Of a stretch of DNA of 42,995 nt, positions 20,800-39,169 are shown in pieces (the first letter of the stretch is position 1; every line of letters begins with the position of its first letter). The notes under the pieces were generated by a model that saw only the letters and a program-made list of their open reading frames with translations, made no database searches and was not told the origin of the DNA. Both the position numbers and the translations under genes were made by a program. Where the stretch lies: assembly GCA_043824495.1 (NCBI GenBank), contig JBDRSV010000008.1, positions 1 through 42,995 of the forward strand, given 5' to 3'. Source of the stretch: Candidatus Aenigmatarchaeota archaeon (GTDB taxonomy: Archaea; Aenigmatarchaeota; Aenigmatarchaeia; QMZP01).

Positions 20800-21027
20800 A
20801 TGCCTTCTGTAGAATTATATATTATGTTCTGGTCAGCATCAAAATGTCAAGCATGTAAAAATGAAATTGAGAAGGGTAAAGAGGTAAAAGCAGACGTAGA
20901 AATATACGGAAAGGTTGGAAAATTCAAGAAAAACTTTTGTTCTTCAGACCACCTAGAAGCTCACAATAAAATCACAGAACAAATGATGAAAAATAGAAGA
21001 GTGTGCTTACCTTGTGCTCTTAGATGA
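20800..21027 (+). CDS. small Cys/His metal-binding protein (TRASH/MYM-like)
   Basis: CQAC...FCSSDH, C-terminal CLPC. Confidence 0.65.
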   Translation: MPSVELYIMFWSASKCQACKNEIEKGKEVKADVEIYGKVGKFKKNFCSSDHLEAHNKITEQMMKNRRVCLPCALR

Positions 21028-21567
21028 TTATCTTATTATTCTAGGTTCACTTGTCAAATCTATTATTGTAGAAGGTTTGTTATCTAAGACACCTGAATCA
21101 ACCAGAAAATCTATTTTATTCAATATTTCTTTGGGAACGCCATCCACGCTTGTTATAGGTGATTTTCCTGTGACATTTACACTGGTAGTCACAAATGGCA
21201 CTCCTGCCTTCTGAATAATGCTCGTGAAAGGATGTTCTGGGATTCTAACACCAAGATTATTGTTATCTGATACGTGATTCAAGAAGTTCTGTTTTTTCTT
21301 TAGTACGAGTGTATAAGGTCCTGGTAACTTTTCTAAATACTCCATTTGCCTCATTTCTAAATTTTCTTTTATCCATGTTTTTGAAGGAGCTATCACAGAA
21401 AACGGCTTTTTACTCTTCTTAATCTTTCTTATTCTTTCAACTGATTCTGGTTCCAGCGCATTGCACCCAATACCATAAATGGTATCTGTGGGATAAACAA
21501 AAACACTACCATCTTTTACATGTTCTATTATTTTCTCCACGTCTCTCTGAATATCGAGTTTTTGCAT
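21028..21567 (-). CDS. L-threonylcarbamoyladenylate synthase (YrdC domain only)
   Basis: YPTDTIYGIGC, LPGPYT, GVRIP, TTSVN, PSTIID. Confidence 0.92.
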   Translation of the reverse strand: MQKLDIQRDVEKIIEHVKDGSVFVYPTDTIYGIGCNALEPESVERIRKIKKSKKPFSVIAPSKTWIKENLEMRQMEYLEKLPGPYTLVLKKKQNFLNHVSDNNNLGVRIPEHPFTSIIQKAGVPFVTTSVNVTGKSPITSVDGVPKEILNKIDFLVDSGVLDNKPSTIIDLTSEPRIIR

Positions 21568-28905: not shown

Positions 28906-28950
28906 TTTCATATTAATAGTTGTTTAAACAATTGTGTAATACGTGGTACA

Positions 28951-29559
28951 ATGATAACGACTATACTTTTTGACGTTGGTGGAGTAATAGTAGAAGAGGA
29001 ATTCAAGGATTTTTTTGGTCAATACGAGAAAGAGACCGGATTCAGTAAACAAAAACTATACGAAGCTATTGTTGATATAGATTTCTGGGATATGTATAAC
29101 AAAGGAAAGGCTACAGAAGATCAATTAGAAGAAAAAATAAGAGAAAAAACCAATATTGATCCTAAGATTCTTCATAAGATCAGAACCGAGTGGAGACATA
29201 TAATCAAGCCTTATCCTCATATGATAGAACTTGTTGAAAAAATCAAGAAAAACTACAAGGTCTTTTGTTTATCAAATGTGGATAAAGACACTGTAAAATA
29301 CATAAACAAAAATTATCCTGATGTATATAAGGTCTTCCCTGGATGCGTCTTATCATGTGATGTTGGTATGATAAAACCAGATAAAGAGATTTTTGATTAC
29401 ACCCTGAGGAAATTTGGCCTGAAAAAAGAGGAAGTTATCTTTATAGACAATTATAGTCACAACACAGAAGCAGCAGAAAGCTTTGGAATCAAGTCTATTA
29501 AGTTTGAAAGTCATGATCAACTTGTAAAAGAGCTCAAAATGCTGGGAATACAGTTTTAA
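28951..29559 (+). CDS. HAD-superfamily phosphatase (subfamily IA)
   Basis: FDVGGV, LSN, KPD, FIDN. Confidence 0.9.
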   Translation: MITTILFDVGGVIVEEEFKDFFGQYEKETGFSKQKLYEAIVDIDFWDMYNKGKATEDQLEEKIREKTNIDPKILHKIRTEWRHIIKPYPHMIELVEKIKKNYKVFCLSNVDKDTVKYINKNYPDVYKVFPGCVLSCDVGMIKPDKEIFDYTLRKFGLKKEEVIFIDNYSHNTEAAESFGIKSIKFESHDQLVKELKMLGIQF

Positions 29560-29589: not shown

Positions 29590-29645
29590 GCCTGATGATG
29601 AAAACCTCACATGATCCAATATGATTGTGACGGGCATTCTGACTT
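29590..29645 (+). ncRNA. candidate box C/D sRNA (predicted target 16S C1402)
   Basis: C ATGATGA 29595-601, D' ATGA 29611-14, C' ATGATTG 29621-27, D CTGA 29639-42; guide GTGACGGGC is complementary to 16S 1401-1409. Confidence 0.6.
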
Positions 29646-29679
29646 CTCTTGATAGTTGTTTATACTCGTGGACAATCTA
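29621..29679 (+). repeat. H repeat copy 1 (59 bp)
   Basis: 47/59 identical to 32399-32457 and 45/59 to 30365-30423 (manual count). Confidence 0.9.
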
Positions 29680-29988
29680 TTTCTTACCACTGTAATTCTT
29701 CTGATAAGTATCATGATCGCACCATTCCAAAACAAGTGCTATGATTGTTATTCCTTCCTTACCGAGGGAATAGAGAAGTCTCCAACCACTTGGTAAATCA
29801 TATTTCCACAGGTTATCTATGTCCTTGAGATTCTTGGGAATTCTATATTTCTTGAGAGGTATCCCAATTCCAGGGGTTTCAATTATTTGGATAAATGCCT
29901 TTGTCAATGTTTTGTAAAGCTATTTGAATTCAGTGCTTTTTTCAAGAGATTCATACTCTTCCTTCAGTTTCTTATCCCTGAATATCAT
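29677..29988 (-). pseudogene. RelE/ParE-like toxin with an in-frame TAG at 29920-29922
   Basis: ATG 29988 overlaps the antitoxin TGA; reads MIFRDKKLKEEYESLEKSTEFK*LYKTLTKAF...NLWKYDLPSGWRLLYS...LEW.DH. Confidence 0.75.
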
Positions 29989-30317
29989 TTCGGTTGCCAT
30001 TTGAGATCTTCCCTGTTTATGTACTTTCTCACCATTTCTGGATTATATATCCAGACAATATGTCCTTTATTGTCCTTGATCGTGAATCCCATTGTGTCAA
30101 AATAATCCAGGATTACTGTGAGTGTCGGCCACATAACCTCTTTCTTAAGGTTTCTTGAAAGCTCTGTCTTTGTACAAGGACTGATTCTTTTTAGAGTCTC
30201 TGCTACCATAATTACAGTGTCTAATCGCGGATAATGAACGACATTGCAATTGAGCTCTATACGCCATTCCGTATTCTTTCTGTCCTTTGTAGTAAGAAGA
30301 TTTTTTTGTGTTTTCAT
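29985..30317 (-). CDS. wHTH putative antitoxin/regulator
   Basis: YPRLDTVIMV...KTELSRNL...WPTLTVILDY; GGTGAT RBS; coupled to the toxin. Confidence 0.75.
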   Translation of the reverse strand: MKTQKNLLTTKDRKNTEWRIELNCNVVHYPRLDTVIMVAETLKRISPCTKTELSRNLKKEVMWPTLTVILDYFDTMGFTIKDNKGHIVWIYNPEMVRKYINREDLKWQPK

Positions 30318-30324
30318 ACCATCA

Positions 30325-30358
30325 CCTATATATCCATAGGTATATATGGACTTATAGG
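30325..30358. promoter_or_regulatory. interrupted 34-bp palindromic operator of the TA operon
   Basis: CCTATA-TA-TCCATA-GGTATA-TATGGA-CT-TATAGG between TATA and start codon. Confidence 0.65.
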
Positions 30359-30364
30359 TTTATA

Positions 30365-30423
30365 AAGGTTGTGACGGGCGTTCTGATTTTTCTTGATAGC
30401 GGTTTACCTTTGTGTGCAATCGA
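30365..30423 (+). repeat. H repeat copy 2 (59 bp)
   Basis: AAGGTTGTGACGGGCGTTCTGA...GCAATCG; direct repeat of copy 1 flanking the TA module. Confidence 0.88.
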
Positions 30424-30485
30424 TTTTTTTCTTTATTGAAACTACCAAAGACAAATGTTTTTATTCTCAAAAACATATTCATAAT

Positions 30486-30815
30486 ATGGTTTGTTTTATT
30501 GTTCCTCTAATAGCAACTATTATTGGATTTACTGGAAGAAAGGTGTTCAATAAGAAAGGTTCTCATGGATTTTGGTTGAACATAATGCTACTTGGTGGTG
30601 CGGTTTTTGGAGGAATAGATCACCTCTGGAACGGCGAGTTGTTCATTATTGGGACAAATTGGTTAATGGATTTGGCTCTAGGTGGTGCAATTACAGGTGG
30701 AATAGTTGCAAGTTGGGGTATTATATCATTCAAAGATAAAATAAATATCTCTAAGATGTTTGGAATATCAACTGAATTGAAAGTATTGCAGAATGCTCAT
30801 TCTAAAAATTCTTAA
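30486..30815 (+). CDS. small membrane protein (about 3 TM; start moved to ATG 30486)
   Basis: MVCFIVPL..., GGAVFGGIDHLWNGELF, DLALG. Confidence 0.75.
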   Translation: MVCFIVPLIATIIGFTGRKVFNKKGSHGFWLNIMLLGGAVFGGIDHLWNGELFIIGTNWLMDLALGGAITGGIVASWGIISFKDKINISKMFGISTELKVLQNAHSKNS

Positions 30816-30846
30816 ACTTTGAATACCAAAATACCACTAAAACGAT

Positions 30847-30922
30847 GCAATCTGACCGCAACGAGTAGGTTGTGCCGAGCCCTGGCTAGGCTATTTACCT
30901 TTTTAGTAGCTCTTCGGGGCTT
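30847..30922 (+). repeat. B dyad, diverged H start and core
   Basis: GCAATCTG-N11-TAGGTTGT at 30847-30873; CTCTTCGGGGCTT at 30910-30922. Confidence 0.75.
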
Positions 30923-30982
30923 CCAATCCCAGATATAGATAATCTTATAAGTCTCTTTTTTGAAAGGTTAAGAGGAAGTAAA

Positions 30983-31762
30983 ATGAAAGAATTCAAGGTT
31001 GCTGTTGCACAGATGGATATCAAACTTGAAGACAAGGAAGCAAATCTTAAGAAAACTGCTGAGATGGTTTCCACTGCAACAAAACAAGAGGCTGATTTTG
31101 TATGTCTGCCAGAATACCTCACGACAGGCAGTGCCCTAGAACAGTGCAGTAAACTAGCGGAGCCGATTCCAGGGCATGTAACCGACAGGCTAAGAGCAAT
31201 TGCCAAAGAGAATGGTGTGTATCTAGTCGCTTCGATTCCTGAGAGAACTGATGATAAGATTTACAACACAGCAGTTCTAATAGATCCCCGTGGAGAAGTC
31301 CTGACAAAATACAGGAAAATACACTTATTCATGGAGGAACGGAACCACATCGCCCGTGGTGGGGAGTATGTTGTTGCGGATACTGAATTCGGAAAAGTTG
31401 GATTGATGATATGTTATGATGCCGTCTTTCCGGAAATTGCAAGACAATTAGCACTGCAGGGCGCTGACATTGTTTTTATGCCTGCGAATTGGCCTAACCC
31501 TTTTTTGTCGCAGTGGAGACTGGCAACCAGTGCTCGTGCTTTAGACAATCAATTCTGGCTTGTAGCTACGAATCGCATTGGTGCAGACAGTAAATTCACT
31601 TATTCCGGTGGAAGCCGTGTAATAAACCCCTACGGAGATCCTGTTGTTGAATGTGGTGATAAAGAGGAGATTCTTGTTGCAACAGTCGACGGGAAAGTAA
31701 CTGAAGAGTTTAAGAGAACCGTTAATTTCTTGAATGACAGGCACTCAGAGGTCTATAAGTGA
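30983..31762 (+). CDS. carbon-nitrogen hydrolase (nitrilase/amidase family)
   Basis: LPEY, YRKIHLF, ICYD (E-K-C triad), SARALDNQ, NRIG. Confidence 0.92.
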   Translation: MKEFKVAVAQMDIKLEDKEANLKKTAEMVSTATKQEADFVCLPEYLTTGSALEQCSKLAEPIPGHVTDRLRAIAKENGVYLVASIPERTDDKIYNTAVLIDPRGEVLTKYRKIHLFMEERNHIARGGEYVVADTEFGKVGLMICYDAVFPEIARQLALQGADIVFMPANWPNPFLSQWRLATSARALDNQFWLVATNRIGADSKFTYSGGSRVINPYGDPVVECGDKEEILVATVDGKVTEEFKRTVNFLNDRHSEVYK

Positions 31763-31924
31763 AGCACTTAGATGTGAATATGAAAATTCGGCTAATCCGG
31801 ATGTTCGATGAAATGCCGCTCCATCCGGTCTTCAGAATTGGTGTGTTGCTCTCCCGGTACTCTAAACTTTTTATTGAGAACGTAAGCCTTAAAAATATTA
31901 ACTCCAATTATTAAAATAAATGAT

Positions 31925-32029
31925 GCAATCTGACCACAGCGAATAAATTGTGACGGGCATTCTGATATTTCTTGATAGTTGTTTTGGTGATAATCATAAA
32001 AGAAAATGTTCTACGTTCTCCCGGGGTTT
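31925..32029 (+). repeat. B dyad, H copy 3 (internally shortened) and core
   Basis: GCAATCTG-N11-TAAATTGT; 34/40 to H1; TGTTCTACGTTCTCCCGGGGTTT at 32007-32029. Confidence 0.85.
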
Positions 32030-32055
32030 TTAAGTATTGAATAATTCATTATCAT

Positions 32056-32373
32056 ATGGTTCATAGATGCCTTAAGAACGGGATTTGTTGTAAGTTATTT
32101 TTGATAAATTTGACAGAAGAGGAATACAAATCAGGTAAATATAAAACACAATTCGAAATGTTTGTACCGGTTAAGGACTTTAAGGAAGCTGAAATATGCG
32201 GTGCAAATATTATTGAACAAAAAAAGGACGGAAGTTGCTATTATCTTAAAGGCACCAAATGCTCTATTCATAATTCAAGACCTATGACTTGCAGGGAATT
32301 CTTTTGTGACTCAAAAAATAAGAAATTCAAGACAATGATAGCTGAGATAAAAAAACTGAAAAGAGTGCAGTAG
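32056..32373 (+). CDS. YkgJ-family Cys-cluster protein
   Basis: CxxxGxCC, C..L.GTKCSIHNSRPMTCREFFC. Confidence 0.85.
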   Translation: MVHRCLKNGICCKLFLINLTEEEYKSGKYKTQFEMFVPVKDFKEAEICGANIIEQKKDGSCYYLKGTKCSIHNSRPMTCREFFCDSKNKKFKTMIAEIKKLKRVQ

Positions 32374-32379
32374 AACTAT

Positions 32380-32540
32380 ACAATCTGCTCGCAACGGACA
32401 GGTTGTGACGGGAATTCTGAAGCCTCTTGTTAGCGGTTTACACTCGTGGACAATCTGATTCTGACGAACAAATTGCAGCATTAAAATATGGGCTCTTAAC
32501 TTTATGTTCAACTCCCTCCCGGGGCTTTAAGTCTGGGACT
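32380..32540 (+). repeat. B dyad, H copy 4, second B, core and AGTCTGGGACT flank
   Basis: ACAATCTG at 32380 and 32450 (70-bp period); GTTCAACTCCCTCCCGGGGCT at 32506-32526. Confidence 0.88.
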
Positions 32541-33805: not shown

Positions 33806-33882
33806 GAGAACAGAAGACACACGACAAGCAGGGATTTCATCCCAGGAATTCTATCCCTCCCGGGGCTTCTAGTCTGGGACTG
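33806..33882 (+). repeat. D element, core and AGTCTGGGACT flank
   Basis: 56/64 identical to 35214-35276; GGGAT-TTC-ATCCC hairpin. Confidence 0.9.
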
Positions 33883-35430: not shown

Positions 35431-36471
35431 ATGTCTGAAAGAAAACTTAATATTTTCAATAAATACCTTACTATTTGGGTAGTTTTGTCTATTAGTATAG
35501 GAACTTTAATTGGATATTTTTTTCCAACTTTTGCAGACACAATTGGAAAATTTGAGATATCAAATATATCCATTCCAATTACATTAGTGTTATTATTTAT
35601 GATGTATCCTATTATGTTAAAAATAAACATAAAGGATATAATTAAAGTAAAAAAAGACAAAAAACCATTGGGTTTGACCCTTTTAATTAACTGGGGAATT
35701 AAGCCATTCAGTACAGCTCTCATAGCATGGTTTTTTATAAGATTTGTATTTTCATCTTTCATCCCTCTGGGTCTTCAATCAGAATACATCGCTGGAATGA
35801 TCCTATTGGGAATTGCACCATGTACAGCTATGGTTCTTGTTTGGACTCATCTTGCTGGTGGAAATGTAAATTACGCCCTTGTACAAGTTTCCGTGAATGA
35901 TATTATCATTCTGATACTTTTTGCTCCTTTAGGTAAATTATTACTTGGCATCACGACAAATTTCCCTGTACCATTTTATACTATCTTATTTTCTGTTCTA
36001 TTTTATGTTGGTATACCATTAATACTTGCTGGTTTGACTAGATACTTTTTGATTAAGAAATATGGGAAAGATTGGTTTCATGATATTTTTATTAATAAAG
36101 TTCAATGGATAAGCCCATTTGGATTATTATTAACTTTGGTTTTACTTTTTATTTTCCAGGGGGATAAAATAATATCATATCCAATACACATTATTCTCAT
36201 TGCCATACCTCTTATAATACAAACATATTTTGTCTTTGCTGTTGGATATTTTGGAGCAAAAAAATTAAAAATTCCATATAATGAAGCTGCGCCATCAACG
36301 TTTATTGGTGCTAGTGATTTCTTTGAACTCGCTGTAGGGGTCGCTATAATATTATTTGGACTCAATTCTGGAGCTGCTTTAGCTACAGTTGTTGGGGTTC
36401 TTGTAGAAGTTCCTTTGATGTTGTCTCTCGTAAAGATAATGAAAATGAAAAAATCGCGTTTTAAATTCTAA
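35431..36471 (+). CDS. acr3: ACR3 arsenite efflux transporter
   Basis: MMYP, LLINWGIKPF, APCTAMV, GASDFFELA, GVLVEVP. Confidence 0.93.
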   Translation: MSERKLNIFNKYLTIWVVLSISIGTLIGYFFPTFADTIGKFEISNISIPITLVLLFMMYPIMLKINIKDIIKVKKDKKPLGLTLLINWGIKPFSTALIAWFFIRFVFSSFIPLGLQSEYIAGMILLGIAPCTAMVLVWTHLAGGNVNYALVQVSVNDIIILILFAPLGKLLLGITTNFPVPFYTILFSVLFYVGIPLILAGLTRYFLIKKYGKDWFHDIFINKVQWISPFGLLLTLVLLFIFQGDKIISYPIHIILIAIPLIIQTYFVFAVGYFGAKKLKIPYNEAAPSTFIGASDFFELAVGVAIILFGLNSGAALATVVGVLVEVPLMLSLVKIMKMKKSRFKF

Positions 36472-36482
36472 AATTATTGATT

Positions 36483-36557
36483 TTTAACTCCTAAGATCAA
36501 TAATACATAGAATTCTCCTATAAGTGGTAATTCAGTTGCCAGGCACTCCCGAGGCTT
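36483..36557 (+). repeat. E element and core, copy 1
   Basis: 65/75 identical to 38568-38642. Confidence 0.9.
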
Positions 36558-38567: not shown

Positions 38568-38674
38568 TTTAACTCCTAAGATCAAATATAACTAGAATTC
38601 TCCTGTAAGTGGTAATTCAGTTGCCAGAAACTTCTGGGGCTTTTCCAACTTCTATGTGTCACATGTTATCGATT
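38568..38674 (+). repeat. E element, core copy 2 and CCAA...TTATCGATT flank
   Basis: begins immediately after the stop codon at 38567. Confidence 0.9.
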
Positions 38675-39046: not shown

Positions 39047-39076
39047 AAGGGAGTATTTCTCCTTTCTTTATTTTTT
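39047..39076 (+). terminator. hairpin plus T-tract after the ATP-cone gene
   Basis: AAGGGAG-TATTT-CTCCTTT followed by a T-rich run. Confidence 0.55.
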
Positions 39077-39094
39077 ACATGTAAATTGAGAGAT

Positions 39095-39169
39095 TTTTAA
39101 GTATCAAATTCAATCATATATAGAATTCTCCTAAGTGGCAATTCAGTTTCTAGATACTCCCGGGGTTTT
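39095..39169 (+). repeat. E element and core, copy 3 (diverged)
   Basis: TAGAATTCTCCTAAGTGGCAATTCAGTTTCTAGATACTCCCCGGGGTTT (39121-39169). Confidence 0.85.

Follow-up and report, generated by a model that had tools for sequence, protein, structure and literature searches.

The 3′ end of a C/D guide sRNA gene in Aenigmatarchaeota as a candidate integration target for accessory-gene cassettes

As a general rule, mobile DNA enters transfer RNA (tRNA) and transfer-messenger RNA (tmRNA) genes at tyrosine-integrase attachment sites in their 3′ ends, and the resulting islands show an intact RNA gene on the left, partial 3′ direct repeats on the right and between tandem inserts, empty sites in relatives, and accessory cargo that includes toxin–antitoxin (TA) modules. 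The locus described here is alike in each of these respects and differs in that its target would be the gene of a box C/D small RNA (sRNA), that its inserts of 0.5–1.6 kb carry no integrase of their own, and that its repeats are 78–92% identical. It lies on contig JBDRSV010000008.1 (42,995 nucleotides, nt; hereafter the window), which is the entire contig C8 of an archaeal metagenome-assembled genome (MAG) of Aenigmatarchaeota, GCA_043824495.1 (1.0 Mb; 80% complete). Below, G denotes genomes (G000 being the source MAG), L denotes loci or contigs of relatives, and H denotes the repeat unit.

Bacterial sRNA genes are known as prophage and island sites, namely Salmonella ryeB and E. coli ryeE (Bobay et al. 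2013, PMC3603311). In these cases, too, a small RNA gene other than a tRNA gene is the integration hot spot, but the genes encode bacterial regulatory sRNAs and receive whole prophages with integrases, whereas the present one is a predicted archaeal rRNA-modification guide followed by minimal cassettes. Integrons are also found in archaea, Aenigmatarchaeota among them (Ghaly et al. 2022, PMC9668308), and share with this locus a one-directional array of single-gene cassettes, related but non-identical sites, TA cassettes, and strain-variable content; unlike an integron, the locus has no adjacent IntI, no attC boxes and no supported hairpin, and its site is derived from an RNA gene. Pyrobaculum calidifontis carries C/D sRNA elements that resemble miniature inverted-repeat transposable elements, with about 15 dispersed full-length copies and terminal inverted repeats (Lui et al. 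2018, PMC6009581). There, as here, C/D sRNA-derived sequence is reiterated in unstable genome regions, but the copies described below are 3′ fragments at one locus, on one strand and between cassettes, and a repeat search of the window found no terminal inverted repeats around the H units. No report of C/D sRNA genes as attachment sites was found in the literature searched, a limited search whose silence is not proof; an archaeal methylation-guide RNA as an integration target has apparently not been described before.

With moderate confidence, we favor serial cassette insertion at the 3′ end of the C/D sRNA gene, as in tRNA-gene islands, followed by homogenization of the copies, as the origin of this locus. 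An insertion at the sRNA 3′ end would keep the intact gene on the left and a partial 3′ copy on the right of the insert; small, unrelated cassettes would have accumulated in succession between the sRNA and the neighbors that ancestrally lay downstream of it, and later gene conversion among the copies would have produced mosaics. We infer that the exchange is site-specific and carried out by a recombinase acting in trans.

A motif search with TTGTGACGGGCATTCTGA at up to three mismatches returned four matches in the window (29625, 30369, 31948 and 32403), all on the plus strand, where shuffled sequences lead one to expect 0.04, and no copy elsewhere in the 1.0-Mb genome. The same four copies had been reported in a preliminary description of this DNA, at coordinates 4 nt left of the true starts; its constant length of 59 bp and identity of 76–85% for three copies are replaced by 63 nt and 78–83% (copies A, B and D) in our repeat comparison. 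Copy C is alike over just 38 nt (92% identical to A), the tail beyond being decayed, and a fifth, degenerate unit, X, was located at about 30840–30925. Each H unit comprises h, TTGTGACGGGxxTTCTGA; m, a 4-nt spacer plus TCTTGATAGYKGTTTAY; and t, CTCGTGGACAATCTGA or GTGTGCAATCG. The partial copies consist of the final ~18 nt of the sRNA (end of box C′, D guide and box D) and a tail of ~45 nt. Units X, C and D have in common an additional 25–30 nt 5′ of h, CAATCTGA-CCRCARCGA... (CAATCTGA-CCRCARCGARTARR), which opens with CAATCTG, the same letters as the end of the unit tail. The sRNA-3′-end string named for any matching attachment site of a mobile element (attP) is GATGATTATGACGGGCAATCTGA. The sRNA and the units are as follows.

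29594 to 29642, plus strand: intact box C/D sRNA, predicted from a model (R1) built from relatives only, orthologue alignment and 16S pairing
29594 to 29601, plus strand: box C GATGATGA; followed by box D′ ATGA (29611–29614) and box C′ ATGATTG (29621–29627)
29628 to 29638, plus strand: D guide TGACGGGCATT; followed by box D CTGA (29639–29642)
29625 to 29687, plus strand: H copy A, with h (29625–29642), m TCTTGATAGTTGTTTAT and t CTCGTGGACAATCT, from the repeat and motif searches
30369 to 30431, plus strand: H copy B, h-m-t, matching the sRNA model at positions 37–60 only
30840 to 30925, plus strand: degenerate unit X, with CAATCTGA, linker, TTGTGCCGAGC, decayed tail and decayed tRNA-like core CTCTTCGGGGCTTCC
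31918 to 32030, plus strand: unit C, with CAATCTGA and linker (31926–31947), h (31948–31965), m, decayed tail and decayed core TTCTCCCGGGGTTTT (32016–32030)
32378 to 32465, plus strand: unit D, with CAATCTG, linker CTCGCAACGGACAGG, h (32403–32420), m and t (GTGGACAATCTGA)

Judged by its conservation, copy A belongs to a genuine box C/D guide RNA gene of Aenigmatarchaeota. The box C ATGATGA (29595–29601) and box D CTGA (29639–29642) agree with the RUGAUGA near the 5′ end and the 3′ CUGA of the C/D definition and are invariant in 12/12 orthologues, the alignment of which also shows GATGATGA, ATGA, GATGATTA, the guide core TGACGGGCA and CTGA to be invariant. The sequence model R1, built from these 12 orthologues with the window excluded, matches copy A at 29594–29648 over model positions 4–60 (42.3 bits, E 1.8e-12), and its matches to C, B and D are confined to positions 36/37–60 (20.3, 13.4 and 7.0 bits, respectively), so the earlier statement that a box C precedes the first copy alone holds. 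Across 91 genomes of the order, R1 found full-length copies in 10 genomes from 8 genera and 2 families; 8 of these 10 genomes have a single copy. An order-wide search with the sRNA 3′ half recovered TGATTATGACGGGCAATCTGA in many genera, and the reversed control gave nothing; the common layout is AGATGATGA, 9–11 nt, ATGA, a short spacer, GATGATTA, TGACGGGCAAT, CTGA and a T-run, and the m-t tail is confined to one genus. The model match, the orthologues and the conserved position after a HAD hydrolase gene (see below) all support the first copy as a real C/D sRNA, as had been proposed; boxes that were merely incidental, with H repeats widespread outside any intact copy, are not what we found, most relatives having a single intact sRNA. 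Rfam yielded no family at the gathering threshold or at E ≤ 10, and its sole match over copy A (snoZ103, 20 bits) was judged meaningless.

The internal boxes are conserved and non-canonical (D′ AUGA; C′ AUGAUUG, or GAUGAUUA in relatives), and the guides are 9 nt (D′) and 11 nt (D) long, versus ~12 nt in canonical sRNAs. The 16S rRNA gene of G000 is not in its assembly, and pairing was tested on the 16S of relatives, which reads CACACUGCCCGUCAAGCC in six genomes of the same order. The guide, UGACGGGCA, pairs with UGCCCGUCA, its invariant core forming nine contiguous Watson–Crick pairs, and opposite the fifth nucleotide 5′ of box D stands the C after G1401, which we take to be C1402 (E. coli numbering), a known 2′-O-methylcytidine (Cm). 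This position is ribose-methylated in bacteria by a protein enzyme and in eukaryotes with a small nucleolar RNA, the guides of the snR70/U43 type specifying the equivalent Cm of 18S rRNA. The D guide is therefore predicted to direct methylation to C1402 in the decoding center of 16S rRNA. Like snR70/U43, it would place a 2′-O-methyl group on a decoding-center cytidine by means of a box C/D D guide; it differs in being archaeal, ~50 nt long, equipped with the non-canonical D′ AUGA and C′ GAUGAUUA/AUGAUUG, and limited to 9 contiguous pairs. Fibrillarin, the ribonucleoprotein component searched for in the genome, is encoded at C25:17041–17688 (E 7e-78). A look for the stretch in sequencing runs turned up no RNA run that contains it.

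We consider it highly improbable that the extra copies are functional RNAs or signals in their own right, such as paralogous guides, terminators, or regulatory 3′ or 5′ elements. The segment TTGTGACGGG is the best-conserved portion of every H copy and the copies are intergenic, as this explanation would have it. However, they lack box C and the 5′ half, those in the sister genome G058 no longer possess box D, with ATGA and ATAA instead of CTGA, they have no Rfam match and fold no better than shuffled sequences, and copy B is placed behind the beginning of a minus-strand gene rather than behind its end.

Variants of the sRNA and further model matches were also noted. A long form of ~100 nt occurs in L052, L053, L054 and L099 (genus g12 and metagenome contigs), with an insertion of ~50 nt between D′ and C′ that forms a hairpin GACGGG...CCCGTC, one arm copying the guide and the other mimicking the rRNA target. 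The internal TGACGGG of this form (G037–G039/L099) was considered as an attachment scar and rejected: it pairs with the downstream CCCGTC, and compensatory changes (GACGAGC/GCTCGTC) identify it as part of a structured insertion. A second model match in G074 (contig C51) lies inside an open reading frame (ORF) of the SRAP family and is due to chance, and a weak additional match in G051 (TCACGGGCAATCTTC, 3.4 kb downstream) is beyond the ancestral flank gene and not significant. A weak second C/D-like layout in the window (20982–21050, plus strand: AATGATGA, ~40 nt, GATGATTA, 10 nt, and CTAG instead of CTGA) overlaps the terminal part of an ORF on the minus strand and is unlikely to be a gene.

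The array reads HAD, A, TA (minus strand), B, membrane protein, X, carbon-nitrogen hydrolase, C, CxxCxxCC protein, D. Its inserts are single genes or pairs of 0.45–1.6 kb that are mutually unrelated; all units lie on one strand, and the TA pair alone is inverted. The segment 28900–32529 is found contiguously, with 1 mismatch, in an independent Logan contig (61 kb) of the source sample. The genes are listed below.

28951 to 29559, plus strand: HAD hydrolase (PF00702), the conserved left neighbor of the sRNA
29677 to 30317, minus strand: TA cassette, with a ParE-like toxin (29677–29988) and an antitoxin-like ORF (29985–30317)
30486 to 30815, plus strand: small membrane-protein cassette, no family match
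30983 to 31762, plus strand: carbon-nitrogen hydrolase cassette (PF00795, 4e-63)
32056 to 32373, plus strand: CxxCxxCC cassette (PF03692), within the segment 32026–32540 that is ~98% identical in the sister genome G058

The TA module had already been recognized as bracketed by the first two copies, and we confirm both of its ORFs on the minus strand. Its toxin gene has an in-frame TAG at 29920–29922 (minus strand) at the position of a Trp codon in the orthologue from the related contig L129, which is intact and shows a weak match to PF05016, and because this stop replaces the Trp, the window copy is regarded as a pseudogene; NCBIfam gave nothing usable for the TA proteins. Cassette content differs among G000, G058, L129 and the strain seen in run X2 of a second groundwater study, and the junction units persist. 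At the left end, TATTAATAGTTGTTTA (28911–28927), directly 3′ of tRNA-Ala(GGC), resembles the middle part of H, TCTTGATAGTTGTTTA (14/16); from the likeness of TATTAATAGTTGTTTA to TCTTGATAGTTGTTTA, the HAD gene itself may stand behind a related junction.

Repeat-bounded inserts next to the same sRNA in other genomes suggest, from their sequence, that it serves as an integration target. L129, a metagenome contig of groundwater type and 10 kb in length, shares 94% nucleotide identity with G000 in the flank that G000 carries on contig C15. It contains an intact sRNA, TA, h-m-t, a Fic/DOC gene, m-t-linker-h, and then DUF5320, EncFtn, DUF134 and CDF genes. Its TA is the module of the window (85.5% identical), the first two h copies share 19/19 nt, and the genes from DUF5320 to CDF correspond to those of C15 at 69.6–70.6 kb, from which match it follows that 2.3 kb with TA and Fic separates the sRNA from the ancestral flank, h being present at each junction. 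G061, from another genus of the same family, has an intact sRNA, HicB-like and HicA genes (PF07927, 1.3e-17), and a perfect 33-nt repeat, GATGATTATGACGGGCAATCTGATTTTTTGTT (box C′, guide, box D and T-run), the insert being 481 nt; this arrangement recurs in the independent metagenome contig L127. An intact gene at one border and a 3′ direct repeat at the other are found in the window (A versus B, C and D), in L129 (19/19) and in G061 (33/33). The proposal of a C/D sRNA as an island target is upheld to the extent that this pattern is present in three settings (G000/L129, G061/L127 and the window array), whereas the integrase-bearing element bounded by H repeats that the preliminary description had envisaged did not appear. 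Viral contigs contained no H-type unit, the sRNA-3′-half pattern matching one unrelated phage gene there, and most further pattern matches in metagenome and genome contigs were unrelated coding sequences.

The ancestral context of the gene can be read from relatives. HAD lies directly 5′ of the sRNA in G028 (L050), in G051 (L057/L079, together with tRNA-Ala), and in the metagenome contigs L091 and L100. On the 3′ side, L091 and L079 carry homologues of the genes at 70.8–75.8 kb of C15; in these loci the sRNA occurs once, box D is followed by a T-run, and the m-t tail is absent. By this gene order, L091 and L079 are uninterrupted (empty) sites, and the sRNA of G000 occupies its ancestral position after HAD, which agrees with the earlier expectation that relatives with the sRNA and without the array would exist.

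A classical system of tyrosine integrases and a tRNA-Thr-like core is interleaved at the distal end of the array.

32506 to 32527, plus strand: tRNA-Thr-like 3′ end, (GTTCAAC)TCCCTCCCGGGGCTT, a second attachment core, with an integrase behind it in both G058 and the Logan contig

This core, ~50 nt 3′ of unit D, parses as a tRNA 3′ end, and decayed versions follow C and X; more copies with different left arms occur at 33854, 35262, 36546, 39157 and elsewhere. In C15, it flanks a 7.3-kb element (61244/68545) with a 418-aa tyrosine integrase, and in C9 tRNA-Thr(TGT) ends with it, a repeat of it lying 2.1 kb off; a related integrase is located in C24 beside tRNA-Thr(GGT). The C24 tRNA gene, a tRNA-Thr(GGT)-like sequence at ~45850–45910 directly 5′ of the 420-aa tyrosine integrase, was missed by ARAGORN. 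In G058, unit D and the core are followed by an integrase gene, and G000 and G058 are 98% identical from 32026, just past the decayed core of unit C, to 32540, 13 nt past the core of unit D; outside these limits they are unrelated or strongly diverged.

The two assemblies of the source sample differ at this core. In the Logan contig, the array runs to 32529 and continues with 8119 nt, which are exactly C15 61261–69379 (the integrase element), and then an R2-type repeat, giving the order D-core, integrase element, core, ~0.8 kb, R2-core, DUF5320 and the rest of the ancestral right flank. Because this contig continues into the ancestral right flank, the whole array represents an insertion between the sRNA and its old neighbors. 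The MAG instead joins the core of unit D to an AAA ATPase cassette (window 32513–32529 versus C15 61244–61260). To the left of the C15 core lies rpL10e, which in G058, G028, G050 and G051 adjoins genes of C8 39.4–40.6 kb; the Logan order preserves both ancestral flank pairs, and the MAG and Logan forms are related by a reciprocal exchange at the 13-nt core. Such a core is too short for a k-mer misjoin; the two forms coexist, or else one of the joins is an error. The array of H units is unaffected, the sequence right of 32529 is possibly not its genuine neighbor, and the difference between the joins explains the seemingly missing integrase at the array end.

This exchange at the 13-nt core would also fit an explanation in which all mobility is due to the tRNA-Thr-like core and its tyrosine integrases, the sRNA units being passengers (attP arms or flank) and the A/B duplication a local accident. 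It is consistent with the 98% segment of G000 and G058, which borders at the cores of units C and D, and with the association of cores and integrases at C15 (61244/68545), C9 (tRNA-Thr TGT, with the repeat 2.1 kb off) and C24 (tRNA-Thr GGT). Yet the repeat-bounded inserts of L129 and G061 have no such core nearby, copies A and B lack it, and a chance event would not have been repeated in another genus, there with a different TA pair and a repeat that is perfect over 33 nt; we regard this explanation as quite unlikely.

The structure of the junctions is less simple than the sRNA 3′ half plus flank of the preliminary description, since the tail seems to be a second, decayed 3′-end copy. The tail, which reads GTGCAATCTGA or GGACAATCTGA, is similar to the common sRNA form at its 3′ end (GGGCAATCTGA), and R1 gives a weak match to it at positions 45–57, which suggests an older, decayed copy of the same sRNA 3′ end. 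Copy 3 of L129 reads ...TAGCGTTTTACCTTTTTGTGCAATCTG, CTCGCGACGGATAGG and TTGTGACGGG in succession, and therefore the stretch 5′ of h in X, C and D starts with the tail end (CAATCTG). An ATGATGC 5′ of copy C had been considered as a second box C; the 5′-half model has no match there, the string is homologous to GTGTGCAATCTG, and copy 3 of L129 shows it to be the CAATCTG end of the unit tail. The composite tail-linker-h was found in genus g1 and L129 only. Copy A is itself a mosaic, its m matching C (15/17) and its t matching D (15/15), and at the orthologous position L129 has 22 unrelated nt. Lineage-specific letters are shared within genomes (TTGTGAC...CATT in G000, TTATGAC...CAAT in L129). 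The X2 strain has near-identical carbon-nitrogen hydrolase and CxxCxxCC genes, and its unit C (window 31920–31975) differs at 24/56 positions and resembles unit D. From the X2 strain, the mosaic and the shared letters, it follows that the junctions recombine or undergo gene conversion much faster than the cassettes change.

The replacement of unit C by a D-like version between identical flanks would also fit an integron-type platform, in which every cassette ends 3′ with a composite CAATCTG-linker-h-m-t site of its own, the 3′ end of the sRNA acts as the fixed primary site, and a recombinase encoded elsewhere captures and shuffles the cassettes singly. The inserts of 0.45–1.6 kb with single genes or pairs, the single strand of all units, their mutual differences, which are like those of attC sites, and the occurrence of the composite unit behind three unrelated genes and also in L129 and G058 agree with this scheme. 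Nevertheless, inspection of all units revealed no R″/R′ boxes (RYYYAAC...GTTRRRY), the predicted hairpins (z from −0.5 to −1.8) are no better than those of shuffled sequences, the fold z-scores as a whole lying between −1.8 and +1.2, and the candidate stem shows no covariation over five units and is broken, uncompensated, in the units of G058 and L129. No integrase (IntI or tyrosine recombinase) lies beside the primary site on contig C8, and just 4–5 units are known, from one genus. We consider an integron-type platform unlikely.

Several observations weigh against serial insertion at the sRNA 3′ end. The duplication is seen in two independent lineages only, and the window copies are 78–92% alike, not identical. 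In the sister genome G058 the site is not cleanly empty: immediately behind HAD stands a copy with a tail but no sRNA 5′ half, in which ATGA replaces CTGA, and the R1 search found no full-length sRNA in this 75%-complete assembly. The parallel within-genome changes show gene conversion, which could mimic part of the pattern. No recombinase was found inside the repeat-bounded segments and no PF00589 match in the window (contig C8); likewise, no integrase was present among the scanned ORFs of L129, and the insert of G061 is HicAB only. The nearby integrases (G058; C15) adjoin the different core TCCCTCCCGGGGC, and because of the borders of the 98% identity, the recent exchange of the CxxCxxCC cassette, the one insert that shows signs of recent transfer, took place at the tRNA-like core and not at h.

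Serial insertion at the guide RNA gene, with the moderate confidence given above, remains the reading we prefer. A tentative extension of it, which we see as possible but would not rely on, is that in one DPANN lineage the guide RNA gene anchors a non-integron platform for minimal cassettes such as TA pairs, Fic and single enzymes, with an sRNA-derived site per cassette, serial insertion in trans, strain-level reshuffling, and the tRNA-core system sharing the locus. If insertion at the sRNA is real, more conserved RNA genes than those of tRNA and tmRNA would serve as landing pads for mobile DNA, minimal TA cassettes would move with no integrase of their own, and an sRNA followed by its partial 3′ copy would be a searchable signature of accessory-gene hot spots in tiny DPANN genomes. 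A by-product of the analysis is a conserved Aenigmatarchaeota guide RNA with decoding-center C1402 as its predicted target.

Two further observations concern the tRNA-Thr-like core. Another repeat family, AGAATTCTCC..GTGGTAATTCAGTTGCC, precedes the core at 36459–36557, 38568–38674 and 39073–39168 of the window, and is also found at C15 69350–69427, C9 435–484 and C29 5019–5069, hence in at least 4 contigs; one C9 copy is 98% identical to a window copy. Finally, behind the rpL10e stop codon there is a core-like sequence both in G000 (ATCCCTCCCGGGGCGT, C15 61241–61258) and in G050 (ATCCCGGCCAGGGCGCG, L146 ~2010–2030), the latter with no insertion, and the second island may use a native pseudo-attachment site behind rpL10e.

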